From a virus: a stretch of 64,000 nucleotides of DNA. Of the stretch, positions 4,311 to 64,000 are shown in pieces. The position numbers and the translations under genes are program-made. The notes beneath the pieces are model-generated. The model made no database searches. It worked only from the letters and a program-made list of their open reading frames with translations, and was not told the origin of the DNA. The stretch is from UHGV virus genome UHGV-1372088. One strand, written 5' to 3'. Each line of letters opens with the position of its first letter. Within the stretch, counting starts at the first letter, position 1.

Positions 4311-5396
4311 ATGAGCAATCCTTTCGGACTGATCTCTGATCAGCACTACAACAACTGGAGCCAGTTCGGTCGAACCATCGGCCTCGACTACAACTCGCGG
4401 CTGAAAATCCAGCTTGAAACAACGCTTGAAGCAGCAAAAGCAATGAAGGCTGCGGGTTGCGAATATCTGTTTTGCGCAGGAGATACTTTCCACGTTCGCG
4501 GAACACTCCTTCCCTCTGTCCTGAACTACGTGACCGAAACGTACAAACAGATCATCAACGAGATTGGGCTGAAGGTCGTCATGCTGGCCGGCAACCACGA
4601 TTTAGAAACGAATGCGTCAGTCTACTCGTCAAATGCATCAAGCAGCCTGGCAGGCATTGGCGTTCACGTCGTCTGTGGCGCTCCATACAGCGTTAAGGTG
4701 GGCGATGCGACCATTCATCTGGTCAGCTGGCGCGAAAGCTACACAGAGCTTCTGGTGGACCTGAAACAAGTTCGCGCTGAAGCGGGTGATGGCATTCACG
4801 ATCTGATTATCCATGCGGGGATTAACAATGCGATCCCAACCATGCCAAACACCGGCATCGATGCAGAAGATCTGAAAGCGCTTGGATTCCGCAACGTCTA
4901 CGCCGGCCACTACCACAACCACCGCGAAATTCTGCCAGGCGTTATCTCTATCGGCGCACTGAACCACCAGCAATGGTCTGACGTGGGCAGCATCGCCGGC
5001 TACATGATTGTGAATGCAGACGGGACGTTTAAGCAGTACGAAACATCCTCGCCGAAATTCATCGCGCTGGAAGGCGAGATTAGCGAAGAGGATCTCAAAG
5101 GCAACTACGTCCGCTATCGCGCAGAAGTGGAATCGGACGAAGAGGCAGCGGAAATTCGCTCAGAGCTCGATGCGATTGGCGCGGCTGGTGTGGTCACTGC
5201 TTTTGTCCGCAAACGTGCGTTGGCGGTGTCTGGACCAAGTACGGCGGATACGCGGCGCATAGACAGTCTGGGTGAGTCCATCAGCTCATACTGCAAGGCG
5301 CAGCATGAAAAGACCAAAGACTTCGATCTGACCGCGCTGGATTCTCTGTGTAGAGAAATCCTGATGGAAGCCGAAAGCGCCGGAACATCGGATTGA
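4311..5396 (+). CDS. sbcD: SbcD/Mre11-like nuclease subunit (calcineurin-like metallophosphoesterase)
   Basis: Phosphoesterase motifs GDTFH, AGNHD and AGHYH. Lies directly upstream of an SbcC-like ATPase. Confidence 0.8.
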   Translation: MSNPFGLISDQHYNNWSQFGRTIGLDYNSRLKIQLETTLEAAKAMKAAGCEYLFCAGDTFHVRGTLLPSVLNYVTETYKQIINEIGLKVVMLAGNHDLETNASVYSSNASSSLAGIGVHVVCGAPYSVKVGDATIHLVSWRESYTELLVDLKQVRAEAGDGIHDLIIHAGINNAIPTMPNTGIDAEDLKALGFRNVYAGHYHNHREILPGVISIGALNHQQWSDVGSIAGYMIVNADGTFKQYETSSPKFIALEGEISEEDLKGNYVRYRAEVESDEEAAEIRSELDAIGAAGVVTAFVRKRALAVSGPSTADTRRIDSLGESISSYCKAQHEKTKDFDLTALDSLCREILMEAESAGTSD

Positions 5397-48046: not shown

Positions 48047-51000
48047 ATGTCCGACAATATCGTAGATTTTAAGCTGATCCTCAATGATAAGGAGTTCGAG
48101 GTATCAGCTAAAAATGCCGGGAAGTTACTCAAACAGCTGAGTGTGGATGCGGGTTTAGCGTCCAAGAAAATCTCCAACCTTGATGTTTCTGTCAACTCTC
48201 TGACGCGAAACATCAAAATCTTCACCGTAGCAGTGGGTAAAGCGGCCTCGGAACTCCAGGATTTGGGAGTCGGGGCCGAACTCGCTGGCAATGCGCTTCG
48301 TGATATTCGTACTCACATTGCCGCAATCAGTCGCAGCTTAACAGTATTCAACGACCGCGTTGGCAAAACCACAACCGCACTGAAAGGTATGGCGAGTGAG
48401 CTGCGCAAGGTTCAGTCTGAACTTTCCGACTTCAGTGATTATGCCAACCACGCAGGCAAGTCTACGCGCGACCTGACCGCGAACGTAGACGATCTCAATA
48501 AGAAAGCCTCCACCACAAATCGTCGCTTAAACAATACGACAAAGGCACTGGCCGGCTGGAAGGACTCTGGTGACAAGGCGAAGGACGCGCTGAAAGAAAT
48601 CATCAGCCAGATGGATACGCTCATTGACCGTCAGAAAGAGCTGAAGGGTTTGGGACGTGCTGATGTTGGCGGGCCAGGTCGCGGCGGTAGTGGCGGTAGT
48701 GGCGGTCGTGGCGGTAGTGGCGGCGGTCGCCACCATAGCAGTTCTTTTGGCGGCGTAAGAGGGACCATCTTTGCTTTAGGCGAAGTGGGTGATGCAGCCC
48801 GAAACGTCAGAGATATGCTGTTTGGCTGGCAAGCGCCCATCATCGAGGCAGCAGCTGAAATGCAGAAGATGCAGATGCTTCTGCAAGGTATAAACAAGGA
48901 TGCAGCCGATCCATTTGCCGCAGCGGCGAAGGATATGGACTACATCATCGCCACCGCTAAAAGTGCGCCTTTTGCGATTGGCGAGTTGACGGGCTCATTC
49001 GTCAAATTCAAGTCGGCAGGATTAGATCCGACGAATGGCTCGTGGAAGACGCTGATCGACTCCGTTGCCCGATTCGGCGGCAGTAGTGAAACGCTTGACC
49101 GCGCAGCCGTCGCTATCCAGCAGATGGCAGGTAAAGGCGTCATCTCGATGGAAGAGCTGCGTCAGCAGCTGGGTGAGGCTGTTCCTACCGCAATGAAGGC
49201 GATGGCGGACGGCATGGGCGTTACTGTAGCCGAGCTTACAAAGCAGATCTCTACCGGCACAGTGAATGCTCAGGAAGGTTTGCGTCTCATGTTCGTTGGT
49301 ATGGATGCCATGAACCGTGGCGCCGCGAAGAGCATGATGGTCACCTACATTGGCGCCCTGGCTCAGATGAAGACCGCCTTCATTCAGTTCTCTAAGACGG
49401 TTGGCGATTCCGGCTATCTCGAAGCTATGTCAAAGAGTCTCAACGAGATCACCGCGTTGATGAATAGCACAGATGGCAGGATGTTTGCCGCGTCTCTGGG
49501 CCAAAACCTGGCGACCGCGATCACGTCTCTGACGTCTATGGCCAGGTGGCTTGTCCAGAATCGAGAGCTGATTATCAATCTCGGCGCAGCTATTGCGGCG
49601 TTCGTAGGCTTCAGGTTGCTTCGCTCTGGGATCTTGGAGGTGATTAGCGTCGGCAGCCAGATGGTGTCTGTGCTCGGTAAAAGCGTAACCGGATTACAGG
49701 CTCCATTTAATCTCCTGTCAGCCTCAGTGACCAGATTTAGTCGAGCGTCAAGGCTTGGACTTGGGACTATCCCAGCTCTCCTGTTCTCGATCAGGGGTGG
49801 TCTGACGGCAGTTAAGGTGGCGTTTGCTTCTCTGTCTGCGTTCATCGTCTCCAACCCGATTGGGGCCGCATTGCTTGCGATATCGACTGCCGTAGGCGTT
49901 ATCGTTTGGGCGATGGGGAAGCTGAGAGATAAGACCGCGCAGACCGTAGAAGAGCTCAAGAAGATGCCTGAGGCGATGACGCAGATCCAGCGCACTCAGA
50001 TTCTGCTCGATGTCAAGAAGCGAAACGCGGAGATTGAGCGTGACGAGAATCTTCTTCAGTCAATCAAATCAGGCAAGCTCTCGGCGGACGCTCTGCCGGC
50101 AGACATCGCAACGGGCAGACAGCTGACTGTTAAAGATGTCGAAAACAGAGTTAAAACAAACAAGGCGATAAATGGCGACTACACTGGCCTGGTCACGAAA
50201 AGCGACGAGATAAAGGCCAAGGAGACGGCATCAGGCGTAACTAAGGCGGTGTTCGAAGACATTGAGAAGCGGCTCAATGTCGGTATGGCTAAATTCGCGG
50301 CAGGTCAGATGCGAGAGAATGAGGCCAAAAGGATCGCTTTGGACGCCGACAAATCTCTCTCCAAGGAAGAGAAGGATAAGCGCCGGGATGAGATAAACCG
50401 CTCAGAGGCAAACGCTCAAGCCGACCTCTACAAGAAGGCCGCTGACGAGATGGAAGCGCGGGTTAAAAGTGTCGCCACACAGGTTAAAAACTTGGATGAG
50501 GCGCTGAGTAAACCTGGCCTGAGTGAAGATCAGAGAAAAATCCTGACCGCTCAAAAGTACGGTTACGCGAGCAACTATGAAGAGTCGAAGCAGCAGCTCG
50601 ACGACATGCGCAACAAGGAAAAAGATACCCGAAACAGTCGCCACGGTATCCCTGACGCCAGCGGCGAATATTCCAGCGCATCCGGGGCTAAAGCCGATCA
50701 CCAGGTTTACGTAGCCAGAGTTAAGAACGACTTCAAGAACGGCGCAACGAGCATCATCGGCGAAGATGGCCAGATCGCCAAGGATGTTTTGGGTAATGAC
50801 ATCGAGGGCATTAACCAGTTCAGAGCCAACGAGACTATCATCTCCAAATACGGCTCAAACGTAACCGGGGAACAGCGTAAGAAAGCCGAGGAAGCGTTGA
50901 CGGCTGCCATTTTGCGAGACACCCAGATCCGCACAAAGGCAGCCGAAACGGCAAGCAAGAAAGAAGAAAGTGCTAACAACAAGGCGCAAAAGGCGGCCGA

Positions 51001-52672
51001 GCGTAAGCAGAGGGAACTTCAGAAAGAGGCTGATGGCTACAACAAGACGCTGAACTCTTCTGAGCAGATGATCTCCATGATGGAGACGGGCTCTAAGAGA
51101 ACCGTTTCGTTTGCCCAGAACGTCGAGAAGACGTCCGTGTCGCTTGAGAAGCTGGCTAACTCTTCCCCTACCGAGCTCATCACGCAGGAGATGATCGACA
51201 AGGCGAAAGAGTATCTGGAGACAATGAAGACGCTGTCTCCTGACTATCTGAAGCGACTGGAGAAGAAGGCCGCCAAGAAAGATTTGGACGATGTCGCGCC
51301 AAATGCAGCCGGTATCATTAGTTCCGGGCTTGATGGTTCGCAATCCAGAGACGAGCAGGTTGAGGCGTTCAGGACCAAGTATGACGAAAGTCTGAACGCG
51401 CTTGAGAGCCGTCGCAAGCAGTACATGAGTCAGTTGAAAGACGACCCAAGTATGCAGGTTTACGTTGAAGAGTCGACCAAGCGGATCAATCAGCTGATTA
51501 AATCTGGCAACGTCGCGCTCATCAAAGAAACCGGCACCGCCACGCAGAAGCTGGCGCTGGAGTATGGCGATCTGGCTACGCAGATTGAAAGCGTTTGGGC
51601 GGATACCTTCTCTGGTTTGACCGACACGCTGACCGAGTTCTTCTCGACGGGCAAGGCGAGCTTCAGTGACTTCGCCTCGTCGATTATGAAGGACATCACC
51701 AAAATGATCGTGAAGAGCCAGATCACACTGCCTCTCATGAACATGTTGGGGATGGGCTCGGGACAGACGGCCATGCAGCAGACGGGCCAAGGCAATCTGA
51801 TGTCGTCCCTTGCTAACCAGGGCGTCTCTCTGTTTTCTGGCGCAGCAACGAATGGCGGCGGCACCAACGTTGTTAATGGCGACGGTAACGTGGCCACCAA
51901 CAGCAAAACGGCCTCGCAGTCCGTTGGTAAGTTAGGCTCGACAACCGCATCGACGACGGAGGGTGTGAGCTCTCTTGGGACGGCGGTGGTCGGAGTCGGC
52001 GGTGCGTTAAGCAATGTGAGCACGGCGGTAGGTTCCCAGACCAAGGCGATCATGTCGAACATCTTCAGCATGAAGGGGCTACAGACCGCCTCCAATGCGC
52101 TGATGTTCACCTTCGCCGCAATGTCAGCCAGTTCCTCGTCCAAAACGAGCAAGTGGTTGGGCTTCGCGGGTACGGTAGCTTCTGGGGTCGCCTCGATATA
52201 TGCCGGTGGTGGATTCAGTGGCGGCGGTTCTGGTGAATCTCCTGGCGGCGGAACGGCGATTCAGAATGCCGGGGCAAACTATAAATTCGCCAAGGGCGGG
52301 ATTATGGGGCCGGATGGTGCTCTGCCGCTGCACAAGTATGCCAAGGGCGGGATTGCAACGTCGCCTCAGCTGGCGCTTTTCGGCGAGGGCTCTCATAACG
52401 AGGCATATGTCCCGCTGCCGGACGGCCGGTCCATTCCTGTCACGATGTCCGCCGAAAAGACAGCTGGTCTTGGCGCTGGTGCTGGTGTGGTGGCCCCTGT
52501 TTCCATCTCCATCAACGTTCAGGCTGACGGTGTCTCTTCTGCAAGCGGCGCTGACTCGACCCAGGGGTGGAAGGATGCAGCTGAGAAGATGAAGGCGATC
52601 GCGCTCGACACCATCCGTCAGGAGAAGCGACCTGGCGGATCGCTTAACGCAAACACTACGGGCAACCGTTAA
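48047..52672 (+). CDS. tape measure protein (1541 aa)
   Basis: Largest protein in the tail module. Gly-rich GGSGGSGGRGGSGGG tract. Long coiled-coil middle region. Hydrophobic segments in the middle. Confidence 0.8.
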   Translation: MSDNIVDFKLILNDKEFEVSAKNAGKLLKQLSVDAGLASKKISNLDVSVNSLTRNIKIFTVAVGKAASELQDLGVGAELAGNALRDIRTHIAAISRSLTVFNDRVGKTTTALKGMASELRKVQSELSDFSDYANHAGKSTRDLTANVDDLNKKASTTNRRLNNTTKALAGWKDSGDKAKDALKEIISQMDTLIDRQKELKGLGRADVGGPGRGGSGGSGGRGGSGGGRHHSSSFGGVRGTIFALGEVGDAARNVRDMLFGWQAPIIEAAAEMQKMQMLLQGINKDAADPFAAAAKDMDYIIATAKSAPFAIGELTGSFVKFKSAGLDPTNGSWKTLIDSVARFGGSSETLDRAAVAIQQMAGKGVISMEELRQQLGEAVPTAMKAMADGMGVTVAELTKQISTGTVNAQEGLRLMFVGMDAMNRGAAKSMMVTYIGALAQMKTAFIQFSKTVGDSGYLEAMSKSLNEITALMNSTDGRMFAASLGQNLATAITSLTSMARWLVQNRELIINLGAAIAAFVGFRLLRSGILEVISVGSQMVSVLGKSVTGLQAPFNLLSASVTRFSRASRLGLGTIPALLFSIRGGLTAVKVAFASLSAFIVSNPIGAALLAISTAVGVIVWAMGKLRDKTAQTVEELKKMPEAMTQIQRTQILLDVKKRNAEIERDENLLQSIKSGKLSADALPADIATGRQLTVKDVENRVKTNKAINGDYTGLVTKSDEIKAKETASGVTKAVFEDIEKRLNVGMAKFAAGQMRENEAKRIALDADKSLSKEEKDKRRDEINRSEANAQADLYKKAADEMEARVKSVATQVKNLDEALSKPGLSEDQRKILTAQKYGYASNYEESKQQLDDMRNKEKDTRNSRHGIPDASGEYSSASGAKADHQVYVARVKNDFKNGATSIIGEDGQIAKDVLGNDIEGINQFRANETIISKYGSNVTGEQRKKAEEALTAAILRDTQIRTKAAETASKKEESANNKAQKAAERKQRELQKEADGYNKTLNSSEQMISMMETGSKRTVSFAQNVEKTSVSLEKLANSSPTELITQEMIDKAKEYLETMKTLSPDYLKRLEKKAAKKDLDDVAPNAAGIISSGLDGSQSRDEQVEAFRTKYDESLNALESRRKQYMSQLKDDPSMQVYVEESTKRINQLIKSGNVALIKETGTATQKLALEYGDLATQIESVWADTFSGLTDTLTEFFSTGKASFSDFASSIMKDITKMIVKSQITLPLMNMLGMGSGQTAMQQTGQGNLMSSLANQGVSLFSGAATNGGGTNVVNGDGNVATNSKTASQSVGKLGSTTASTTEGVSSLGTAVVGVGGALSNVSTAVGSQTKAIMSNIFSMKGLQTASNALMFTFAAMSASSSSKTSKWLGFAGTVASGVASIYAGGGFSGGGSGESPGGGTAIQNAGANYKFAKGGIMGPDGALPLHKYAKGGIATSPQLALFGEGSHNEAYVPLPDGRSIPVTMSAEKTAGLGAGAGVVAPVSISINVQADGVSSASGADSTQGWKDAAEKMKAIALDTIRQEKRPGGSLNANTTGNR

Positions 52673-52711
52673 CAACCAAAGTGCCGCAGAGATGCGGCAC
52701 ACAACTCAAGG

Positions 52712-53056
52712 ATGAGGAAAATGGCCAGAGAAACATTTGGGTGGAACCCTGATTCGCAATCGAAAAAGACCATAAAGCCGAACGTGACCGTACTGAAGTT
52801 CGGTGACGACTATGAGCAACGCCAGACCATTGGTCTCAACCGCGTGAAGGAAGAGTGGAGCCTGACGTTCCAAAGGCAGCGATCGGAAGTTGAGAAAATG
52901 GACGTTTTCCTGACGAAGAGAGCTGGCGTGGAATCGTTCTACTGGAAGACGCCGCGCAACCAGACAATCATTGTGGTTTGCGACACCCACGATGTTGAGT
53001 ACGACAGAGGGGCGGCGAAGTTGACCTGCACATTCAGACAGGTTTTTGAGTCTTGA
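52712..53056 (+). CDS. minor tail protein, lambda gpM-like
   Basis: KFGDDYEQRQTIGLN matches lambda M RFGDGYSQRAPAGLN. 114 aa. Confidence 0.65.
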   Translation: MRKMARETFGWNPDSQSKKTIKPNVTVLKFGDDYEQRQTIGLNRVKEEWSLTFQRQRSEVEKMDVFLTKRAGVESFYWKTPRNQTIIVVCDTHDVEYDRGAAKLTCTFRQVFES

Positions 53057-53075
53057 TATGTATGTGCTTACATAT
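53056..53075. promoter_or_regulatory. class-B inverted repeat ATATGTATGTGCTTACATAT
   Basis: Lies between the M-like and L-like genes. Confidence 0.45.
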
Positions 53076-53113
53076 TAACATGGATCAAATTAAGGCTTAA
53101 CTCACGGAAGATT

Positions 53114-53815
53114 ATGGGAATCAAAAAGGAAATACAAAGCCTGTCACCTTCGTCGGTGATAGAGCTTTTCATTTTGGATATGTCCGTTACCACCTCTGGC
53201 GGTAAGCGGTATTTCCACGCAGGTACGAACGAGATCCGCGACAGCATCGTCTGGCAGGGCGTGGTTTACGAGCCCTGGCCACTCAAAGCGACCGGGTTCG
53301 ATATCTCCGGGCAGGGCACTCTGCCTTCACCGAAAATGTCCATCGCGAACTTTGGCGGAAGCATTTCAGCTGAAGTCCAGGCTAACGATGATTTGGTCGG
53401 CTGTACCGTCATTCGTAAACGCACACTGGCTCGCTTCCTCGATGCGGTCAACTTCTCAAGTGGCGTCAATCCAACCGCCGATCCATCTCAGTTCTTCCCG
53501 GACGAAAGCTGGTTCGTCGAGCAAAAGACGCTGGAGACTTTCGAGGTCGTCGAGTTCGAGCTGTCCAGCGTATTCGAACTGATGGGCGTGAAGCTGCCGT
53601 ATCGCCAGATCATCAAGAACACCTGCCCGTGGAAATATCGCGGCACAGAGTGTGGTTACACGGGTCCGTACTTCGACAAAGACGATAAGCAGACCTCCAT
53701 TTCTGGATCTGACTACTGCACTAAACGTCTCGACTCCTGCCGCGCCCGTAAAAACTACTTTGCGAACGGCATTATCCACTTCGGCGGTTTTCCGGGGGCC
53801 ACTCGTGTCTCTTGA
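53114..53815 (+). CDS. minor tail protein, lambda gpL-like
   Basis: 233 aa with a C-terminal Cys cluster (CPWKYRGTECGYTG...C...C) like the gpL Fe-S site. Confidence 0.6.
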   Translation: MGIKKEIQSLSPSSVIELFILDMSVTTSGGKRYFHAGTNEIRDSIVWQGVVYEPWPLKATGFDISGQGTLPSPKMSIANFGGSISAEVQANDDLVGCTVIRKRTLARFLDAVNFSSGVNPTADPSQFFPDESWFVEQKTLETFEVVEFELSSVFELMGVKLPYRQIIKNTCPWKYRGTECGYTGPYFDKDDKQTSISGSDYCTKRLDSCRARKNYFANGIIHFGGFPGATRVS

Positions 53816-54608
53816 TAGCAAGTTCATCATTGGTGAGGCGCTATCTGGCGCCTTTATGTCCTGTGCTGCCAAAAACTACCCGAATGAAGCGTGTGGCTTT
53901 GTCGTTTCTGGCGCGGGTGGGAAGTATCTCTTCGTTGAAGCCAGAAACACGTCAGAAGACCCACAGGAGCGTTTCGTTATGCACCCTGACGACGTTATGG
54001 CTGCGGAGGATAAAGGGGATGTGGTGGCTGTGTGGCACTCTCACACTGACCAACCCGCGACACCATCAGAAGCGGATCTGGCTGGCTGCGAAGCGACGCA
54101 GCTGCCCTGGGTTATTACCGCCATTCACAAAAACTACGACGACAGCATTGATGTCGATTTCGTCTTTTCAAGTCCCGTCGTTTTCCATCCCACAGGATTC
54201 GAGATGCCTTACACCGGCCGCATTTATGCGTTCGGCGTTTTCGACTGCTGGACCCTGTGTCGCGACTATCTTGGCCGCGAATTTGGAATCAGTCTGAACC
54301 TCCACGAAAAGTTTCGCATCCCCAACTGGAGCGAAGGCGATGTGGACATTCTCGGCGACAACTTCGCTGGTGAAGGTCTGGTTCGCCTGGCGAATGGTGA
54401 GGAACCTCAGAAGGGCGACATCTTCTTCATGCAGTACGGAAAGATGCCGGATCACTGCGCCGTCTACATCGGTGACGACCAAATTCTCCATCACCACAAG
54501 GACCGTCTCAGCTGCCGAGCCGTCTTTGGTGGGATGTACAAAAAGCATGTGACGCACCACCTGCGCCACCGGAATCTACTTTCAGGGAAAGAGAAATGTC
54601 TGAATTAG
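53805..54608 (+). CDS. tail tip protein, lambda gpK-like (JAB/MPN plus NlpC/P60 domains)
   Basis: JAMM motif HSHTDQPATPSEADL. Downstream Cys/His (CWTLCRD...HH). A GTG start overlaps the gpL-like stop; an alternative ATG lies at 53856. Confidence 0.6.
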   Translation: MSLDSKFIIGEALSGAFMSCAAKNYPNEACGFVVSGAGGKYLFVEARNTSEDPQERFVMHPDDVMAAEDKGDVVAVWHSHTDQPATPSEADLAGCEATQLPWVITAIHKNYDDSIDVDFVFSSPVVFHPTGFEMPYTGRIYAFGVFDCWTLCRDYLGREFGISLNLHEKFRIPNWSEGDVDILGDNFAGEGLVRLANGEEPQKGDIFFMQYGKMPDHCAVYIGDDQILHHHKDRLSCRAVFGGMYKKHVTHHLRHRNLLSGKEKCLN

Positions 54609-55183
54609 TTCACGTTCAATTGGGCGGTGCGCTGGCGACCAACTTCGGTCGCCATTGGCATTTAAACGTCCGAAACGCCAAACAAGCCTTTGATTTGATC
54701 GACGCCAATAAGCCTGGGTTTAAGGCGTGGATTCGCAAACACGCGAAGTCGATTAGCAAGTACCACATCCAGATTACAAACAAGCAGGGCCACAAGTATT
54801 CAATGGATGAAACCGAGTTTCAGATGATGGGTGAAAGCGACAACATCGCCAAAATCCGCATCACGCCAGTTCCGCATGGTAGTGGCGGGAAGGGCTTTGC
54901 GTGGTTTGAAACCGTTGTTGGGGCTGCACTTTTGGTTGCCTCGATTTTCATTCCAGCGCTGGCCCCTTTAGGCATAGCTCTCCTGATGGCCGGCGTCCAG
55001 GGGCTTCTCTCCCCACAAGCGAAGAAAGCACAGGGGCCGGCTAACAACTCTGATGCGACCTACTTTGACGGCCCACAAAACACGACGAATCAGGGCAACC
55101 CGGTTCAGCTTAATTACGGTGAAGAAATTCTCGTCGGATCTCAGACCGTGTCCTCATCAATCACCATTGAACAGACCGCATAA
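54596..55183 (+). CDS. tail assembly protein, lambda gpI-like
   Basis: 195 aa with a hydrophobic C-terminal segment. Sits between the K-like and J-like genes. Confidence 0.5.
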   Translation: MSELVHVQLGGALATNFGRHWHLNVRNAKQAFDLIDANKPGFKAWIRKHAKSISKYHIQITNKQGHKYSMDETEFQMMGESDNIAKIRITPVPHGSGGKGFAWFETVVGAALLVASIFIPALAPLGIALLMAGVQGLLSPQAKKAQGPANNSDATYFDGPQNTTNQGNPVQLNYGEEILVGSQTVSSSITIEQTA

Positions 55184-55191
55184 GGGCGTAC

Positions 55192-58100
55192 ATGGAACAG
55201 TTCAAAAAAAGAAAACTGCCTGAAATTATCGCAGGTGCTGGCGGCAAGAAGTCGTCCGGCTCGTCAAGGACACCGGTAGAGGCGGACGACACCGTTAACT
55301 CGAATGTCAAAGTATCCATTCTGGACTTGCTGGGTGAGGGCGTTATTGGCGGTCTGAAGGACGGCGCGAAGTCGATCTTCCTTAACGACCTGCCATTGCA
55401 GAACTCTGACGACACTTACAACCACTCAGGCGTAACCTGGTGGTTCCGTGATGGCTCTCAGGACCAGAGCATCATCGAAGGCTTCGACTACACCGAAACG
55501 CCTAAAACCATCGGCTTGCAGGTCAAGAAAACGAGCGCCGTTACGATGGCGGTCGACAGTGACAGCGCTGACCGCTTCCGCGTCATTCTGAAATTCCCAT
55601 CGCTGAAATCTGTCGACAAAAAGACGGGTGACACCAGCGGTACTTCTGTCACGTACAAATTCCAGGTGAGCAGTGCCGGCGGCGCATTTGTTGACGTGGC
55701 GCCAGAGGGCGAGTCCTCCGGGACCGTTACGCTGACCGCGAAGAAGGCCGGCGTTTATTATCGAAGCTACATACTCAACCTGCCGAAGCCGGGCTCTAAG
55801 TATCAGGTTCGTGTTGTTCGTGTTACCGACGACAACAAAGACACGACCTACCTTGCCAACGATATCTATGTGGATACCGTCGGGGAGATCATCAACACCA
55901 ACATGAACTACCCGAACTCTGCGCTGGTCGGCCTTCGCGTCAACTCAGAGCAGTTCGGCTCGTCCATGCCGTCTCGTTCGTACCTGATTAGCGGTATGAA
56001 GATCCGCGTCCCGTCAAACTACGATGAAGTCACCAACGAATACCGAGGGACATGGGACGGTTCGTTCAAACTGATGTCGTCCAGTAACCCGGCATGGATT
56101 CTGTATGACCTCGTGACCAATAAGCGCTATGGTCTGGGTGAGTTCGTCAGAGAGTCAATGTTTGACCTTGGCCAGCTTTATCAGATCGGCCGGTACTGCG
56201 ATGCGCTGGTTGACGACGGCTTTGGTGGCAAAGAGAAACGATTCGCCATCAACACGCAGATCACCACGCTTCAGGACGCCTATCGCTGCGTTCAGGATAT
56301 TGCTGGTGCTTTCCGTGGGATGGTTTATTGGGCCGGCGGCATGGTTCATGTGACGCAGGATAGCCCGTCAGACCCGATCGCCATCTACTCAAACTCCAAC
56401 GTAATTGATGGTCGATTCTCCTACAAAGGCTCTGCCCGTAAGGATCGCCCTTCTGTCGCGCTTATCACCTACAACAACAAAGAAGACAATTACAAGCAGA
56501 ATATTGAGTATGTCGAAGACTTAGAAGCCATTGAGCGCTACGGGATACGCAAGACGGAGTCTGTAGCGTTTGGTTGTACTTCTCGTGGCATGGCTCATCG
56601 TGTGGGCTTGTGGACGCTTTATACAGGGCGTATGGAGTCGGACGTTATCACGTTCCAGACAGGGATGGACTCAGCATTCCTCGTTCCGGGCGACGTCATC
56701 CTGATTCACGACAAGTTCCGCGCCGGCCGTCGTAATTCTGGTCGTGTTGTCGCATCCACCGCAAACAGCATTACACTGGACTCTACGGTCGACATGACCA
56801 AGGCTGGCACCATCACCTTCATTAACGCTGAAGGCCGGATGATTAGCCGCGACATCCTTGAATCTGGCGTAGTGAGCAAAGTCACCTTTAAAGATGCAGT
56901 GAACGAGGCCGACCGCCCGGTTGCTGATGGCATCTGGGTGATTTCTCAAAGCGATCTGAAACCGCTTCAGGCTCGCGTAGTTGGTGTTACCCAGGGTGAA
57001 GACGGCGTTGGTAGCACGATCACCTGTATCCAGAATAACCCGTCCAAATATGCTGCCATTGATGACGGCGCCGTGCTCATCCCGCAAAACACGACCGTCC
57101 TTGATCCGACATTCTCGAAACCCGAGAACCTGAAGATCACTGAAGGAACATACCTGTCCTCTCCGGGCAACCTAAACGTATCGCTGACGGCGACATGGGA
57201 AGGTAAATCCGCAGAGTATTGGGTTAGCTGGCGCCGATCCGATGCCGGTAATGTGTCCAACTGGCAGACGGCCAAAGTTAACGAAGAGCAGTTCGAAGTT
57301 AAGCCGGTCGCGGAGAGCGGCAAATACGACTTCCAGGTGTACGGCGTTTCCGTCTCCGGGCGTAAGACCGAAATCCTCAGCACAACGTATCAGGTTCTGG
57401 GAACCATGACGCCTCCGGGCGCTCCATCGTCTCTGACTGCCGTTGGCGACTACCGCCAGATTATCCTTGGCTGGTCTAACCCGTCGTCCGTCGATTTGGA
57501 TCACATCCAGATTTACGCCTCGAAGACCAACGACGTCACCAAGGCGACTCTGCTGGCTAAATCCACGACCACCAACTTCACCCACAGCGGTCTGGAAGAT
57601 TCGGTAACGTGGTACTACTGGATTCGCTCGGCCAACAAACGCGGCATGACCAGTGACTGGAGCTCGAAGCTCGGTACGTCGGCAATGACGCGCGATGTAT
57701 TGTCGTTCCTGCAAAACAAGATCACCGAATCCGAGCTCGCCAAAGACCTTCTGGCTGATATCGACAGCAAGGCGGTTGCTGCTGAGGTTGATGCTTCCAT
57801 TGAAGACGCGAAGTCCGAAGCTACCGCGCAGGTTGAGGCCGCCAAGAAAGAGGCGTCCAGCGCCTTAAGCGCAGCCCAGGTCACGCTGAACAACGCCATC
57901 AATCAGGAAGCGACTGACCGCAATAATGCTGTTGCTGACGAAGCTAAGCAGCGCTCCCAGGCTATTTCGGCAGAAGCTGATGCGCGTACCAAGGCTATCT
58001 CCGATGAGGCTATCGCTCGCGCTGACGCAATTACAAAAGAGTCCGACACTCGCACGAGGGCAATGGCCGACGAAGTCACCGCCCGAAACAAGGCTGTCGC

Positions 58101-61100
58101 TGACGAAGCCGCCGCCCGGACAAAGGCTGTGTCTGACGAGGCTGTCGCTCGCGCCAAGGCTGTGTCTGATGAGGTGGCGGCCAGAACCAAAGCTGTCGCA
58201 GATGAGGCCACCGCTCGCGCCAAGGCGATATCTGACGAAGCCGCCGCACGCGCTACGGCAATTAGCGATTCGGTGGCGGTTGAGGCTACCGCTCGCGCGA
58301 AGGCTATCGCAGACTCCGCGTCGTCTCTCAGCGACAAAATTGAAAAAGAGGTCACCGATCGCGTCAAGGCTGTTTCCGATCTGGACACCAAAACCGCAAA
58401 CGCGATCTCGTCCGAATCATCAAGCCGCATCGCTGCCATTTCTGATGAGGCAAAGACTCGCGCTGACGCTATTCTTCAGGAGAAGAACAGCCGCCAGGCG
58501 GAAATTAAAAATGTGTCCGCTCAAATGCAGACCGCCAACGAGTCTCTGGCGCAGCAGATTTCACAGGTCGCAGCGGGAACAGGCGAGCAGTTCGACAGTC
58601 TCAAGATCTGGTATTTCGATGCACAGACAACTGAAGGGTGGAGCGGCAACAAGAGCGCTATTCTGTCTGCTGACGGGTGGATTCGCTCAGGCAATGGCGT
58701 GGATGCATGGCTGACATCGCCAGCAGGTCTTGCTATCGCCGGCGCATCCTATCGCTTCATGAAGATGCGTATCCGAAAAGTGGGTAATCCAGTTTGGGAA
58801 GGTGCAATTCGCTGGATCACCAAAAGCGGCGATAGCTTCAACAACACCAATTTCATCACGGTAAGCGAACCGGAGTACAACGCCCAGGGTGTTGCTACGC
58901 TGACGGCAAGCGATATCAAGTGGAATAACGATACCGTTCACCAGATTCGTCTTGATCTTTCCATCTCGACCGATGATTCAAACTACATCGAAGTCGACTG
59001 GATCGCCGTCGGCCGACCAACTCCGGGCGCCGGCATGGCCGCTCTGCAAGATGAGAAGACCGCCCGTACCAACGCTGATGCAGCAGAAGCAGCCAGCCGC
59101 TCAACTCTGGCAACACAGCTGCGTGGCTCTTATGACGGGACTGACATTACAAAGCTGAGCTCTGGCCTCATCTTCCAGGAGCAGCAAGCGCGTGTAACTG
59201 CCGATAAAGTAGAGGCGACCGCACGTCAGTCACTGGAAACCAAAGTGAATGACAGCGTATCGAGTATCAACAAGTCGCTCGATACGCTGAACACGAAAGA
59301 CCAGGCGATGGCGTCAGACATCACCGGCCTTAAATCTTCTTTAGACGACAAAGCTGATGCGTCGGCCGTTCAGACACTCAAGGCGACGGTCGAGCAGCAG
59401 GGCTCGAATATCTCTACTCAGGGACAGTCGATCACCAAGCTTCAAGGCGATCTGAATACCACCAACACCAATGTTGGGAAGAAAGCCGACCAGACGGCCA
59501 TGACCGCGTTACAGGGAACTGTGACCCAGCAGGGCAAGGATATCGCGGCAGCCAACAGCAGCATCTCCACCCTGAAGTCTTCTCTGGACACTACGAACGA
59601 TGCGGTGGCCAAGAAAGCTGATGCGACGGCGGTCAGCGATCTGTCTTCTCGCGTAAGCGCGACAGAAGGTAGCGTGTCCAGTCAGGGCGACAGCATTGTC
59701 CAGCTGAATAACTCACTGAGCAACGCTCTGGCGGACTCTGACGCTTCAGCCAAGACTCCGAACAACCTGATCGTCAACCCATCGTTTGAGCGTGGTATGG
59801 ACGGTTATATTGGCGCATCCAGTCTCAGTACGGTCGTTACTGTTCAGATACCGCATGTCGGCACAAAAGCACTGAAAATTGACCCAGGTAGCTCCGTATC
59901 TCCGGGCCAGTACATCGATTTTGTCAAAGGCCGTACTTATGAGATCGGCGTCTGGGTTAAACAGGTTTCTGGAACAACAGATAATGGGCAGGGCAACAAC
60001 AAGCTGCGAGTGGGTAATAGTGCTGGAGCGCCAGTGTTTGAGGTCCCGTTCGCAAACCTCACCATTGACTGGACGAAAGTTAGCAAACGATGGAAGGCTA
60101 CCGAGACGGGAAGTCTGCCCGTTACGCTGAGCAACTATCTGACCGCCGGCAACCGCTACTTCGATGACTTCTACGTTATCGACGTAACCGACGCCGTGAA
60201 CATCGATGCGAGCGCCTCCGCGATTTCTTCGTTGCAGAGTACCGTCACGCAACAAGGTAAAGACATTTCGTCGCAGTCCACCAGCATCGCTGGCCTGAAC
60301 AACAGCCTGAACACAACCAACGAAAACGTCGCGAAGAAGGCTGATTCCTCTGCGGTCCAGACGTTGCAAAATACTGTGACGCAGCAGGGCAAGGATATCT
60401 CTGCCGCCAATAGCGACATCACCAATCTGAAAGGCAGTCTGGATGCGACAAACGATAAAGTCGCTACCAAGGCTGACGCTTCAGCAATGAGTGATCTGGC
60501 GTCTCGCGTATCCCAGAATGAGAAAGGCATTGCCACGCAATCCGACTCTCTGACCAAATTGAGTAACAAGGTGTCCAGCATTGACGTCGGCGGTGTGAAC
60601 CTCATCACCAACGGCGATATGAGTGCGGCGCCGGTATCTCTGCTTTCCACTACGACCAGCTTTAAATCGTTCGATCGTACCGTGACTGCCGATGTCCGTG
60701 GCATGTCAGTGGTGACGCCTCGCTCAATAACGCTGTCCGTATGGTTTAAAGAGCTGTCCTCTGGGTTCGGGACGACGAAGCCGTTCACCAGTGTTGTGAT
60801 TGGTAAAAGCGCTGCCGGCGATAATTGGGGCGTTCGTTTCTATGCCAGCAACGGAAGTGTGTCGCAGAAAGGGGATATGTTCGTCTGGACCGGTACGATT
60901 AACCTGAAAGCCGGCGACACGCTGTTCAATGACCCGACGACGATCCGCTTCATTCTGGAAGATAAAACCCAGAAGACTGGCGCCATCTTCTACCGCGTTA
61001 AGTTGGAAAACGGCAACATCGCAACCGACTGGTCCGCAAGCCCGGACGAAGTGAAGTCAGGTCTGGATGCCAATGCGTCTGCACTGAATGCACTAACGAC

Positions 61101-64000
61101 GCGCGTTGCCTCAACCGAGGGTAATGTTGAATCTCAGGGCAACAGCATCACTTCTCTGAAGAACGACCTGGCGACAACCAACGCCAACGTTTCGAAGAAA
61201 GCTGACTCGTCCGCTGTAGCGACAATCCAGAGCACGGTAACGCAGCAGGGCAAGGACATTGCATCCTCCGCGTCCGACATCTCATCGCTGAAGAATAGTC
61301 TCGCCACAACGGACAGCAACGTCGCGAAGAAGGCGGACGCCTCAGCACTGCAAACTCTGCAAAACACGGTAACACAGCAGGGTAAAGATCTGACCAGCGT
61401 TGGCAATCGTGCAACGGCGCTGGAGAACAGCCTCAAAACGACGAACGACAATGTTGCGACCAAGGCCGATGCCTCCGCGCTGTCAACGCTTCAGAATACC
61501 GTATCACAGCACGGTGATTCCATTGCGTCTCAGAGCGACTCAATAACCAGTCTGAAAAACAGCGTCGGTTCTTTGGTTAACATGGGCGACAATCTGGTTC
61601 AGGACTCCAGCTTTGACAACGGCGGGCAAACGTTCAGGACTCAGCAAAATTCTGGAACATCTGGAAGTATTGTTGCGTTTGGCGCGTTTGGTGAAAACTC
61701 GGCCGGTGTGCGTATGGTTAAAGTCAACGGTACGTCGCCTGGTCTGTTCGCTAACGGCAAACTGCCAGTTCCGGTAAATGGCGCGAGAAAATACCGTTAC
61801 ATTGTTCGCGCGAAGGGTGTTTCCGGGGCAATGAATATGCTGCTGCGCCGCTGGAATTTTAACGGCAATACGGAAGGGGCGTATGAAGACAAGAACAATA
61901 CGCTGACAACCGACTGGCAAACCATCACCTGGGACACATCCTTCTCGCCGAAAGACGGCGTTGACGGTCAGTCCTTTGGCATCTACTGCCATCCGAACAA
62001 TGGCGAGATCTGGATTGATTCATTCCAGGTGTTCGACATTACCGATGCGACCAACAATGAGACGACGGCCAGCGCGTTAAGCAATCTGTCGACGACCGTT
62101 TCCAGGCAGGGTGAAACCGTCACCTCTCAGGGTACGGCGATCACCAAGTTGCAGAATGACCTCAGCTCCACCAAGACCGATCTGGCTAAGAAAGCGGATG
62201 CATCGGCGCTTCAGACACTGCAAAGCACCGTGACCGATCAGGGTAAGACGCTGACCAGCCAGGGTGATGCGATCACGGCGCTGAATAACACCGTTAATAC
62301 GGTGAAAGGTGATGTGGCAAAGAAAGCCGACTCCTCTGCGCTTCAGAATCTTCAGAGCACCGTAACACAGCAGGGTAAAGACATCTCCACCAATGCCAGC
62401 AACATCACGGCGCTGACTGGAAACCTTGCCACCACAAACGCTGCCGTCGCAACGAAAGCTGATGCTTCTGCGTTGAACAACCTCACAACGAGAGTGACCC
62501 AGAACGAGAAGAACATCTCTTCTCAAAGTGACGCCGTAACGAAGCTGTCCAACACGGTAAGCAACATCGCGGTAGGTAGCGCAAACCTGATTCCGAACTC
62601 CGGCACAATGGAGGGATGGTCTGACGTCATTAGCGACACCTATCGTGGCAACAAGGTCTTCTCGTTCACGAGAAAAGCCAACAGCTCAAGCTACGTTCAG
62701 TCGAACGAGATTGTGCTGGCCGGCCCGGTGGACTCCGACAGCTACGTCTACAGCTTCTGGGCGAAAGCCGCGAAGGATGGCACTGTCATCAACGCCTACT
62801 TCTACAACCCAAGCAACACGACCGGTTCTGAAACAAGCCAGGGTGTTAAGGGTAGCAGTTCTGATGGCTCTGCGGCGATCACACTGACCACCTCATGGGC
62901 GCGTTATTGGGTTAAGTGGACTCATTCTCCGACAACCGGAACGAAGCGCTTCATTCCGGCGCGACTGAACAATTCCTCAACTGCCGACCAGACTGTCTTC
63001 ATCAGCTCGCCGCAGCTGGAAACCGGCAACGTCGTAACCGACTGGAAAGCGGCAGACAGTGATTTCGCCTCAGCCTCCGCGCTCAGTACGCTGACCAGCC
63101 GTGTAACCTCGGATGAAGGCGTTATTTCATCTCAGGGTTCGGCAATCGCCGATCTGAAAAACAGTCTGGCGACAACAAACTCGACCGTTGCAACAAAGGC
63201 GGACGCTTCAGCGTTGAGTTCGCTTCAGAACACCGTAACCAAGCAGGGTACGGACCTGAAGTCGGCGTCTGATTCCATCACGACGCTGAAGAACAGCATC
63301 GCGGCGACTGATGCCAATGTTGCCAAGAAAGCGGACGCATCCGCTCTCCAGACGCTCCAGAGCACCGTCTCTACGCAAGGGGATAAGATTGCCAGTCAGG
63401 GTAATTCTATCACCAGCCTGGGCAACTCACTGGACACCGTGAAGGGCGATGTTGCGAAGAAGGCGGACACTACGGCTTTGAATAACCTTTCTACTCGGGT
63501 TAGCAATGCCGAAGATAAGATCAGCAGCAGCAGTGACGCCATCACTTCGCTGAACAGCTCGCTGAATCAGCAGTCTAAGCGCGGCGCAAACATCCTGCCA
63601 GACGGGACGTTCGAGAGCTATTCGAGCGGGTACAATATCACCAATGGTCGCGTCATCGTGACTGCTGACGATTCTCACGGCGGAAACAAATGCATCCGTG
63701 TGACACGTCCGAACGACTACACTAATTATACAGATAACAGTGACAACCACATCTTCAGCGGCTTCCAGGTTCGCGACAACGCGGTATTCTATGTTGAGTG
63801 CTGGGTTAAGCTGGACGCCAAGAGCACGACGATGGATGGCTCGGTGCAGATTGCGGTCGGCATGTCGTTGCAGTATCAGGATAACTCCTGGCAGTGGCCG
63901 GCACTCATTAAGTCGGCAAAAGATCTGTCCGCAGACACCTGGACGAAAGTCAGTGGCTATCTGAAGAGCAGCAAGAGCGGTATCAAACAGGCGATGGTGC
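55192..64000 (+). CDS. central tail fiber / host specificity protein, lambda gpJ-like N-terminus, with a very long modular C-terminal extension (partial, continues beyond the window)
   Basis: N-terminal ...GGKKSSGSSRTP...VSILDLLGEGVIGG...VTWWFRDGSQDQ is collinear with the gpJ N-terminus. The frame stays open for more than 2,930 codons to the window end. Contains an FN3-like region, a hendecad Ala-rich coiled coil, roughly 40-aa repeats and beta-sandwich modules. Confidence 0.75.
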   Translation, partial: MEQFKKRKLPEIIAGAGGKKSSGSSRTPVEADDTVNSNVKVSILDLLGEGVIGGLKDGAKSIFLNDLPLQNSDDTYNHSGVTWWFRDGSQDQSIIEGFDYTETPKTIGLQVKKTSAVTMAVDSDSADRFRVILKFPSLKSVDKKTGDTSGTSVTYKFQVSSAGGAFVDVAPEGESSGTVTLTAKKAGVYYRSYILNLPKPGSKYQVRVVRVTDDNKDTTYLANDIYVDTVGEIINTNMNYPNSALVGLRVNSEQFGSSMPSRSYLISGMKIRVPSNYDEVTNEYRGTWDGSFKLMSSSNPAWILYDLVTNKRYGLGEFVRESMFDLGQLYQIGRYCDALVDDGFGGKEKRFAINTQITTLQDAYRCVQDIAGAFRGMVYWAGGMVHVTQDSPSDPIAIYSNSNVIDGRFSYKGSARKDRPSVALITYNNKEDNYKQNIEYVEDLEAIERYGIRKTESVAFGCTSRGMAHRVGLWTLYTGRMESDVITFQTGMDSAFLVPGDVILIHDKFRAGRRNSGRVVASTANSITLDSTVDMTKAGTITFINAEGRMISRDILESGVVSKVTFKDAVNEADRPVADGIWVISQSDLKPLQARVVGVTQGEDGVGSTITCIQNNPSKYAAIDDGAVLIPQNTTVLDPTFSKPENLKITEGTYLSSPGNLNVSLTATWEGKSAEYWVSWRRSDAGNVSNWQTAKVNEEQFEVKPVAESGKYDFQVYGVSVSGRKTEILSTTYQVLGTMTPPGAPSSLTAVGDYRQIILGWSNPSSVDLDHIQIYASKTNDVTKATLLAKSTTTNFTHSGLEDSVTWYYWIRSANKRGMTSDWSSKLGTSAMTRDVLSFLQNKITESELAKDLLADIDSKAVAAEVDASIEDAKSEATAQVEAAKKEASSALSAAQVTLNNAINQEATDRNNAVADEAKQRSQAISAEADARTKAISDEAIARADAITKESDTRTRAMADEVTARNKAVADEAAARTKAVSDEAVARAKAVSDEVAARTKAVADEATARAKAISDEAAARATAISDSVAVEATARAKAIADSASSLSDKIEKEVTDRVKAVSDLDTKTANAISSESSSRIAAISDEAKTRADAILQEKNSRQAEIKNVSAQMQTANESLAQQISQVAAGTGEQFDSLKIWYFDAQTTEGWSGNKSAILSADGWIRSGNGVDAWLTSPAGLAIAGASYRFMKMRIRKVGNPVWEGAIRWITKSGDSFNNTNFITVSEPEYNAQGVATLTASDIKWNNDTVHQIRLDLSISTDDSNYIEVDWIAVGRPTPGAGMAALQDEKTARTNADAAEAASRSTLATQLRGSYDGTDITKLSSGLIFQEQQARVTADKVEATARQSLETKVNDSVSSINKSLDTLNTKDQAMASDITGLKSSLDDKADASAVQTLKATVEQQGSNISTQGQSITKLQGDLNTTNTNVGKKADQTAMTALQGTVTQQGKDIAAANSSISTLKSSLDTTNDAVAKKADATAVSDLSSRVSATEGSVSSQGDSIVQLNNSLSNALADSDASAKTPNNLIVNPSFERGMDGYIGASSLSTVVTVQIPHVGTKALKIDPGSSVSPGQYIDFVKGRTYEIGVWVKQVSGTTDNGQGNNKLRVGNSAGAPVFEVPFANLTIDWTKVSKRWKATETGSLPVTLSNYLTAGNRYFDDFYVIDVTDAVNIDASASAISSLQSTVTQQGKDISSQSTSIAGLNNSLNTTNENVAKKADSSAVQTLQNTVTQQGKDISAANSDITNLKGSLDATNDKVATKADASAMSDLASRVSQNEKGIATQSDSLTKLSNKVSSIDVGGVNLITNGDMSAAPVSLLSTTTSFKSFDRTVTADVRGMSVVTPRSITLSVWFKELSSGFGTTKPFTSVVIGKSAAGDNWGVRFYASNGSVSQKGDMFVWTGTINLKAGDTLFNDPTTIRFILEDKTQKTGAIFYRVKLENGNIATDWSASPDEVKSGLDANASALNALTTRVASTEGNVESQGNSITSLKNDLATTNANVSKKADSSAVATIQSTVTQQGKDIASSASDISSLKNSLATTDSNVAKKADASALQTLQNTVTQQGKDLTSVGNRATALENSLKTTNDNVATKADASALSTLQNTVSQHGDSIASQSDSITSLKNSVGSLVNMGDNLVQDSSFDNGGQTFRTQQNSGTSGSIVAFGAFGENSAGVRMVKVNGTSPGLFANGKLPVPVNGARKYRYIVRAKGVSGAMNMLLRRWNFNGNTEGAYEDKNNTLTTDWQTITWDTSFSPKDGVDGQSFGIYCHPNNGEIWIDSFQVFDITDATNNETTASALSNLSTTVSRQGETVTSQGTAITKLQNDLSSTKTDLAKKADASALQTLQSTVTDQGKTLTSQGDAITALNNTVNTVKGDVAKKADSSALQNLQSTVTQQGKDISTNASNITALTGNLATTNAAVATKADASALNNLTTRVTQNEKNISSQSDAVTKLSNTVSNIAVGSANLIPNSGTMEGWSDVISDTYRGNKVFSFTRKANSSSYVQSNEIVLAGPVDSDSYVYSFWAKAAKDGTVINAYFYNPSNTTGSETSQGVKGSSSDGSAAITLTTSWARYWVKWTHSPTTGTKRFIPARLNNSSTADQTVFISSPQLETGNVVTDWKAADSDFASASALSTLTSRVTSDEGVISSQGSAIADLKNSLATTNSTVATKADASALSSLQNTVTKQGTDLKSASDSITTLKNSIAATDANVAKKADASALQTLQSTVSTQGDKIASQGNSITSLGNSLDTVKGDVAKKADTTALNNLSTRVSNAEDKISSSSDAITSLNSSLNQQSKRGANILPDGTFESYSSGYNITNGRVIVTADDSHGGNKCIRVTRPNDYTNYTDNSDNHIFSGFQVRDNAVFYVECWVKLDAKSTTMDGSVQIAVGMSLQYQDNSWQWPALIKSAKDLSADTWTKVSGYLKSSKSGIKQAMV

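Follow-up and report, generated by a model that had tools for sequence, protein, structure and literature searches.

A putative giant lambda-J-type tail-tip fibre of a Klebsiella SSU5-like phage-plasmid with carbohydrate-binding-module-like domains inserted in a hendecad-periodic rod

The central tail-tip protein of phage lambda, gpJ, is ordered as hub domains, two FNIII domains, a short alpha-helical shaft, a beta-prism and a receptor-binding domain, and receptor contact is signalled along that short shaft, whereupon the tip opens (PMC11101478). Homologues of gp21 of phage phiKO2 that reach ~4,200 amino acids (aa) have been noted in Klebsiella prophages (De Sousa et al. 2020; PMC7784688). Homologues of ~4,300 aa also occur in hundreds of Klebsiella plasmids, and PHROG 2589, a profile of 3,686 positions, represents proteins of this kind. 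Here we describe a giant J protein that is a large member of this known, functionally uncharacterised family. It is encoded at the end of a 64,000-nucleotide (nt) stretch of the virus genome UHGV-1372088 (the window), from position 55192 to 64000. We think it probable, if some way short of assured, that the gene specifies the lambda-J-type (gpJ/TipJ family) central tail-tip fibre of a Klebsiella SSU5-like phage-plasmid, and that its shaft is a long coiled-coil rod bearing glycan-binding domains. An earlier note, made by reading the letters of the window, had described a gpJ-like fibre with a hendecad coiled coil, spacer repeats and lectin-like beta modules; the feature was confirmed as described, with the corrections given below.

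The open reading frame (ORF) in frame 1 runs from 55192 for 2,936 codons to the window end without a stop. In plasmid pINF102.5 (CP110757.1, 99.1% identical) the complete gene measures 15,516 nt and encodes 5,171 aa, so that ~2,235 codons lie past the window end; everything said below on residues beyond 2,936 is taken from this copy. The early estimate of a fibre more than 2.6 times the length of lambda J and still open at the window end (2936/1132) was thus borne out, and the full protein is 4.6 times as long as lambda J. The giant gene makes up about 15% of the 104-kb phage-plasmid.

All features of the gene lie on the + strand. The TipJ hub (aa 1-640, 55192..57111) was delimited by Pfam, by alignments to lambda gpJ and the F2-pyocin, and by NCBIfam. 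It contains FNIII-A_GpJ (aa 101-235, nt 55492-55896) and Phage-tail_3 (aa 361-521, nt 56272-56754) domains, both above the Pfam cutoff. When searched against the PDB with phmmer, the protein matched the F2-pyocin tail fibre (E 1.3e-128) and lambda gpJ (8iyk_J, E 6.9e-112, aa 20-858 on 3-836). NCBIfam lambda_TipJ matched at aa 20-903 (E 1.5e-138), but under the strict 1950-bit cutoff set for close lambda J. These alignments identify the N-terminal third as a bona fide lambda-J homologue, in agreement with the gpJ-like N-terminus first proposed. The FN3-like region proposed to follow it was also recovered: aa 641-865 (57112..57786) occupy the site of lambda gpJ FNIII-1/-2 in the gpJ alignment, and Pfam fn3 matched aa 744-826 (nt 57421-57669) with 30.3 bits (cutoff 25), accompanied by a weak match to Ig_J_second. 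At the distal end of the pINF102.5 copy, beyond the window, Pfam Phage_Tail_Tip (DUF1983) was found at aa ~4842-4974 (E 8.7e-42), and the last ~196 aa gave no Pfam or other family match. The ~4,000 extra residues of the giant protein therefore occupy the place of the alpha-helical shaft of lambda, between the FNIIIs and the beta-prism.

This extra region opens with an alanine-rich hendecad shaft (aa 866-1126, 57787..58569), defined by register listing, Tandem Repeats Finder (TRF), direct repeats and a hydropathy spectrum. Units of the 11-residue consensus K-A-V/I-S/A-D-E-A-x-A-R-x begin at about aa 900. Ten to eleven in-register copies occupy aa 912-1021 (nt 57925-58254) and, past a 4-residue insertion, approximately six degenerate copies reach about aa 1109, for a total of ~17. 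The array had been presented as about 12 perfect repeats; it is real, but its units are consensus-like and not identical to each other. TRF detected a 33-nt period at 58069-58247, direct-repeat families D2 and D5 also cover the shaft, and its hydropathy spectrum peaks at 5.45, 3.68 and 2.19 residues, which are harmonics of 11.

The spacer repeats that follow had been read as a ~40-aa element distinct from the hendecads. Neither point stood. At the protein level a repeat hidden Markov model (HMM) gave a period of 44 aa (132 nt), which equals 4 x 11, with 13 full copies in the window and half-copies on either side of every beta module. Across 19 copies the hydrophobic core at positions 7, 10, 14, 21, 25, 29/30, 33, 37 and 44 is essentially invariant, with conserved polar residues in between. 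If the conserved polar positions that lie within the three 7-residue gaps are included, there are 12 core positions per 44 residues, or a spacing of 11/3. Consistent with this, peaks at 3.65-3.68 residues were among the top spectral peaks of all six coil segments and of none of the module controls. The shared 3.67-residue periodicity indicates that the 44-aa spacers continue the hendecad coil and do not form a separate element. The DNA copies of the repeat are 60-72% identical without long identical tracts, and this divergence hid the 132-nt period from TRF. Despite this drift, at the protein level K24-A25-D26, A29 and V37 are invariant and L10 and L33 near-invariant (for example at 61126-61521). 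Such constraint exceeds what a plain spacer would seem to need, and could point to a specific role, for example in ion-binding layers, in docking or as a register code.

Five coil segments separate the modules of the window, all assigned by the repeat HMM and the 3.67-residue periodicity. Segment 1 (aa 1291-1511, 59062..59724) is degenerate at first, with 44-aa repeats from aa 1373, and its C-terminal part is helical in the AlphaFold2 (AF2) model of the class A module described below. Segment 2 (aa 1673-1797, 60208..60582) comprises a half repeat, two full repeats and one third, and is also helical by AF2. Three full repeats each make up segment 3 (aa 1960-2125, 61069..61566), segment 4 (aa 2293-2457, 62068..62562) and segment 5 (aa 2626-2792, 63067..63567), the last of which again has AF2 helices. 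In AF2 monomer models the 44-aa repeat parts flanking modules M1 and M4 formed unbroken helices of 30-40 residues, with predicted local distance difference test (pLDDT) values of about 50-82. A profile of the flanking helix matched the P22 gp26 tail needle in the PDB (E 3.4e-6), in a region that is a trimeric coiled coil, and Pfam SlyX also matched. PDB sequence searches with the hendecad region (best E 0.45) and with three 44-aa repeats (sigma-1, E 0.13) gave no significant match. These data support an alpha-helical, hendecad-periodic rod; for the alanine-rich 11-mer array the support is its sequence periodicity. The rod would most likely be a trimeric, nearly unsupercoiled coiled coil, the trimer being suggested by the stoichiometry of gpJ.

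Interruptions of the repeat HMM define 13 modules in the whole protein (M0-M12). Six of them (M0-M5) fall in the window, at the positions where six beta modules had been noted. They are M0 (aa 1127-1290, 58570..59061), M1 (aa 1512-1672, 59725..60207), M2 (aa 1798-1959, 60583..61068, ending KLENGNIATDW), M3 (aa 2126-2292, 61567..62067), M4 (aa 2458-2625, 62563..63066, ending QLETGNVVTDW) and M5 (aa 2793 onward, 63568..64000), which is cut by the window end and was read whole in pINF102.5. Using jackhmmer and alignments we grouped M1, M3, M5, M11 and M12 as class A and M2, M4 and M7 as class B, leaving M0, M6, M8, M9 and M10 as singletons. By these comparisons the modules fall into at least three unrelated classes, most without detectable mutual similarity, and are not copies of one domain. 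The proposal of at least five tandem lectin-like modules thus holds for their lectin-like character, which is clear for class A from Pfam and AF2 and weaker for the class B model, but not for tandem duplication.

Class A could be assigned to a family by several routes. M1 passes Pfam CBM_4_9 (E 1e-10, 42.6 bits against a cutoff of 25.9). M3 is a diverged member that remains below the cutoff (E 0.012, 16.4 bits) and belongs to class A through its jackhmmer link to M1, M5, M11 and M12, appearing in the class A alignment; M5 was joined to the class by jackhmmer alone. Structure prediction of individual modules, as the earlier note had suggested, was carried out. An AF2 model of class A from a 31-sequence alignment reached a mean pLDDT of 87.4, with most of the beta core above 90, and showed a helix - beta-sandwich - helix layout. 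Foldseek matched this model to carbohydrate-binding modules (CBMs) of families CBM16, CBM4-2, CBM61 and CBM22 (E 5e-10 to 1e-7, template modelling (TM) scores 0.75-0.8). The top match was the CBM16 structure 2zew (E 4.8e-10, TM 0.75, 26-28% identity), and the predicted jelly-roll superposes on solved CBMs. Using sequence alone, the class A profile recovered CBM22 (7.3e-12) and CBM16 (3.5e-11) from the PDB. Profile searches and models thus agree that class A, five of the 13 modules, consists of CBM_4_9-type jelly-rolls. Laminin-G, the other label that had been suggested, was not specifically recovered, as the module matches were to CBM4/16/22/61-type jelly-rolls.

For class B the AF2 model (pLDDT 64) has the same fold type as class A, and we consider with moderate confidence that it represents a second jelly-roll family common in phage adhesins. 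An exhaustive HMMER search found the class B module in 2,171 protein clusters. Most of these proteins have 1,000-5,500 aa, and a single one can contain as many as 12 matched stretches. Sampled members matched PHROGs named tail protein, 'host range and adsorption' and 'PblB-type receptor binding'. A word-indexed protein search had returned only fragments of at most 1,252 aa and very few class B relatives, so that the class B alignment stayed shallow. The class B proteins, which reach 5,508 aa and often hold 5-12 matched stretches, are a large, poorly described class of multi-module phage adhesins.

Among the singletons, M0 gave a weak but significant match to PDB chain 8gtc_M ('Megatron protein', residues 493-630, E 2e-4) and had relatives in 5 of 120 collected proteins. 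Pfam returned no match for M0, M2, M4, M5, M8 or M9, and only a weak, sub-threshold Cadherin-like match for M6. M10 (aa 4051-4220, outside the window) passes Pfam ILEI, an interleukin-like epithelial-mesenchymal transition inducer or FAM3-type domain, with 45.4 against 27 bits, which is unusual in a phage fibre. Database fragments of these proteins already carry NCBI names such as 'carbohydrate binding domain-containing protein', 'phage tail tip fiber protein' and 'phage head spike fiber domain-containing protein'. Enzymatic families were absent from Pfam, NCBIfam and PHROGs scans of the window part and of ten segments. A depolymerase or beta-helix tailspike was rejected as an identity for the protein, since no pectate-lyase-like or enzymatic domain was found and matches to tailspike folds were confined to their CBM-like accessory domains.

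The modules enter the coil in a regular manner. At M1-M5 the repeat HMM shows the coil halting at repeat position 14-17 and restarting at 25-27. M0 lies ahead of the 44-aa array, after the hendecad shaft and before coil segment 1, and the twelve modules within the array each replace residues ~15-24, about one hendecad, with a beta-sandwich of 130-180 residues. Coil between modules measures 35 + 44n residues, where n is 2-3 for the window part and 1 beyond it. The fixed insertion phase and this spacing suggest that the modules are probably lateral insertions into a continuous 44-periodic rod and not in-line beads. In the CBM4/16 fold the first and last strands pair and the termini are adjacent, which fits lateral insertion. 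A trimer would bear three domains per node, with nodes 11-25 nm apart. The coil residues sum to 1,866, which at 0.148 nm per residue gives an estimated ~276 nm. From the 1,541-aa tape measure protein encoded upstream, a tail of ~230 nm would be expected, so the central fibre estimate exceeds that for the tail.

Comparison of module content among relatives revealed a mosaic. J proteins of Klebsiella SSU5-like plasmids span 4,296-5,171 aa, compared with 3,433 aa in N15-like phiKO2 and 1,385 aa in SSU5. Versions of 4,296-4,297 aa lack exactly M2 and M4, the module order of phiKO2 differs, and a 96.6%-identical protein copy in CP037443.1 is shorter by precisely one 44-aa repeat (aa 2047-2090), missing from the run of three between M2 and M3 (61069-61566), a change of copy number by a whole repeat unit. 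Against pMB7868_2, identity is 70% for the hub, 94-99% for M1, M3, M5, M7, M8 and M10, 85% for M6, 62% for M9, 70% for M11 and 66% for the prism; the last 196 aa show no relationship. M9 (58-62%) and M11 (47-70%) were hot spots of divergence in two relatives (L004 and L005). These alignments indicate that module cassettes move between phage lineages independently of the hub and distal tip, with some nodes as hot spots. The suggestion that DNA-level repeats make the gene prone to modular recombination is therefore supported, on evolutionary timescales, as to its outcome (module gain and loss, a one-repeat deletion and mosaicism), but not as to its substrate: within-gene copies of 60-72% identity, without long identical tracts, are a poor substrate for homologous recombination within the gene. 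The giant-shaft expansion was seen in the Klebsiella elements compared and was absent from SSU5, the Salmonella relative; Acinetobacter also has related fragments.

What the modules would do is the less certain part of the account. We propose that the divergent lectin-like nodes would provide multivalent, low-affinity, reversible binding to capsular or O polysaccharide. Weak binding at each node could let the long rod reach and hold through a thick Klebsiella capsule, and the distal J-type beta-prism with the variable C-terminal domain, outside the window, would then make the committed receptor contact. Taken as a whole, from the J-homologous hub, coil periodicity, CBM-type modules and mosaic evolution to the putative glycan binding, we hold this explanation with reasonable but limited confidence. 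A bolder form of it casts the CBM-studded rod (~276 nm as against a ~230-nm tail) as a non-enzymatic capsule-crossing device, whose weak lectin nodes would let the virion thread or ratchet through without a depolymerase, and whose swappable nodes would set K- or O-type specificity. This extension is possible but doubtful.

Several points weigh against glycan binding along the shaft, and some of them lend substance to other accounts of the modules. Relay of a receptor signal over ~4,000 residues is left unexplained by it. The trimeric state, handedness, lateral placement and 276-nm length are read from sequence and monomer models, and the class B model, with a core mostly at 66-88, derives from an alignment of only 8 sequences. 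At one stacking Trp of the CBM16-1 alignment many class A homologues also have Trp, but M1 has Ala, with Tyr three residues earlier; the second CBM16 ligand site lies in a loop whose alignment is unreliable. Conservation of binding residues is thus not demonstrable, as would be expected if the modules had a CBM fold without ligand and served as registration pegs or stabilising collars for three 5,000-residue chains, or as rod stiffeners. Jelly-rolls are common as purely structural elements of phage fibres. Near-identical 44-aa repeats would also make out-of-register pairing a folding hazard that divergent modules at fixed phase would disambiguate. Nevertheless, we consider a purely structural role unlikely: class A is clearly homologous to the glycan-binding CBM16/22/4 families, with M1 over the Pfam threshold, and the class B family occurs in proteins of the PHROGs 'PblB-type receptor binding' and 'host range and adsorption'. 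In addition, M9 and M11 are only 44-70% identical where their neighbours are 95-99% identical, a pattern of swapping and diversity expected of host-interaction surfaces.

If the modules do bind glycans, the ligand might still not be the primary host route. The gene for a separate, Peptidase_S74-bearing, side-fibre-like protein (see below) could carry the main polysaccharide specificity, a further point against our proposal, and the giant fibre could instead retain virions in gut or mucosa by binding mucin, environmental or biofilm-matrix glycans, as proposed for Ig-like capsid decorations. Many divergent low-affinity lectin-type domains on one particle, and the human and wastewater Klebsiella that host the matching plasmids, would suit such a role. 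However, the modules sit on the central fibre, which must reach the outer membrane, and the expansion occurs in phages of capsulated Klebsiella (with fragments in Acinetobacter) and not in SSU5, which points to the capsule as the relevant context; we regard retention as distinctly improbable. That the repeat array is an assembly artefact, a doubt raised in the earlier note, or a decaying pseudogene has a negligible likelihood. Many public homologues are indeed 'partial', on contigs of 1-3.5 kb, and short-read assemblies often break in the gene. Three independent complete plasmid records (Australia, UK and Nigeria) nonetheless share the architecture, with 98-99% identity along all 8.8 kb; each has an uninterrupted frame of 5,123-5,171 codons, and the repeat copies, at 60-72% DNA identity, are too diverged for collapse or expansion. 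Both artefact and pseudogene were rejected on these grounds, and we count the intact 15.5-kb frame in three independent plasmids as evidence of selection on the gene. Short-read Klebsiella assemblies break inside the gene despite this repeat divergence, and the presence of several related elements per genome may be the cause.

Temperate Klebsiella phages are capsule-specific yet scarce in classical depolymerases (PMC7784688; PMC13123978), and a 2026 association study found no statistically significant predictor for almost a third of the K-loci that it covered (PMC13123978). Thirteen divergent lectin-type nodes that appear to be exchanged independently of hub and tip would be a plausible additional specificity determinant. 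If the capsule-crossing account were true, it would supply one missing determinant of capsule specificity in these phages, and would raise the question of how the receptor signal travels along the shaft to open a lambda-type tip. Phage-plasmids as a class can carry resistance genes (PMC9600943). A match to the giant gene was found in 318 PLSDB plasmids, so that phage-plasmids of this type are common in clinical Klebsiella, and their host-range determinants have practical weight. A 44-residue (4 x 11) repeat with whole domains at fixed phase would also be an unusually regular natural coiled-coil scaffold.

The genomic context is that of a J gene, which is typically last in an M-L-K-I-J series downstream of the tape measure gene. 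Pfam scans of the window ORFs (48047-55183) and the plasmid annotation place here a 1,541-aa tape measure gene (48047-52672, TMP_3) upstream of an M-like gene (52712-53056, +, Phage_min_tail), an L-like gene (53114-53815, +, Phage_tail_L), a K-like gene (53856-54608, +, Prok-JAB and NLPC_P60) and an I-like gene (54596-55183, +), all in lambda order. The lambda-K-like protein joins a JAB (Prok-JAB) and an NlpC/P60 peptidase domain. In pINF102.5 the giant gene is directly followed by a 501-aa tail fibre gene with a C-terminal Peptidase_S74 chaperone (L001:23008-24513), possibly a side fibre or an alternative receptor-binding protein.

The terminase and portal region (window 38.7-41.3 kb) showed ~76% DNA identity to Salmonella phage SSU5 and 74-75% to Klebsiella SSU5-like elements. 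For the giant gene, megablast against phages gave just ~74% identity across 10% of its length, and the informative matches came from the plasmid collection, where the 8.8-kb region matched over its full length at 98-99% in three complete Klebsiella plasmids. GenBank record CP056499.1 starts the giant gene internally (L002:15844, 'DUF1983 domain-containing protein'); an uninterrupted frame of 5,171 codons begins at L002:12001, and the internal start is probably a start-site mis-annotation. GC content across the gene is even (0.53-0.59), so base composition does not hint at a recently acquired foreign insert. Scans of the whole window for tRNA genes and Rfam families gave no matches.

We then placed the giant J among known fibres. 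The phiKO2 protein gp21 (3,433 aa), annotated as 'tail protein, similar to lambda J' and reportedly called an exceptionally long central tip fibre by Casjens et al. in 2004, resembles it in having a J-like hub and 13 full 44-aa repeats, together with modules of class A, class B and M8-like type that are 48-67% identical. The window protein is longer (5,171 aa, 13 modules), has another module order and an SSU5-like rather than N15-like backbone, and its alanine-rich 11-mer array was not found in gp21 by motif scan. SSU5_020 of Salmonella phage SSU5 (1,385 aa) belongs to the closest named backbone. Its hub is 69%, its FN3 region 67% and its prism 60% identical, and it has a helical stretch of ~380 aa between FN3 region and prism. 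In contrast to the giant J it has one weak 44-aa repeat hit only and no beta modules, and SSU5 carries a separate 1,260-aa tail fibre with an adhesin.

Trimeric alpha-helical fibres are also known from P22 gp26, T4 fibritin and reovirus sigma-1. The gp26 coiled coil matches the repeat profile (E 3.4e-6); the match to sigma-1 (E 0.13) is not significant. Their registers are heptad-dominated. They are far shorter, and have loops or a terminal head but no CBM domains inserted at fixed phase. The central fibre of mycobacteriophage Douge offers a functional precedent, as its CBM-like domains bound cell-wall glycans on arrays (PMC13033339). Douge gp20 likewise has CBM-fold domains on a central fibre and was among the Foldseek matches of both the class A and class B models, but this fibre measures 38.8 nm, has two CBM-like domains and no periodic coil array, and its hub is a separate polypeptide. 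The pb4 proteins of T5-like Klebsiella grimontii phages (3,446-3,454 aa; PMC13611949) are also central fibres, enlarged approximately fivefold, with lectin-fold-like and Ig-like beta domains and trimeric spacers, and their authors suggested carbohydrate binding. The spacers of giant pb4 are collagen triple helices and its hub is of the T5 pb4 and not the lambda J family, so that the likeness to giant J looks like convergence and not homology.

Lambda gpJ itself (PDB 8iyk/8xci; PMC11101478) shares with the giant J the homologous hub and FNIIIs, the gene position, the Phage_Tail_Tip prism and a three-helix shaft between FNIIIs and prism, but its shaft is a short bundle (described segment residues 841-861) where the giant J has ~4,000 residues with 13 inserted domains. 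As close Klebsiella relatives already differ entirely in the distal ~196 residues, a LamB-type receptor should not be assumed. In the literature searched we found no domain-level dissection of these giant J proteins, nor of a 44-residue hendecad repeat with phase-fixed insertions. Set beside these systems, the phase-fixed insertions in the 44-residue repeat are a refinement and not a new kind of system.

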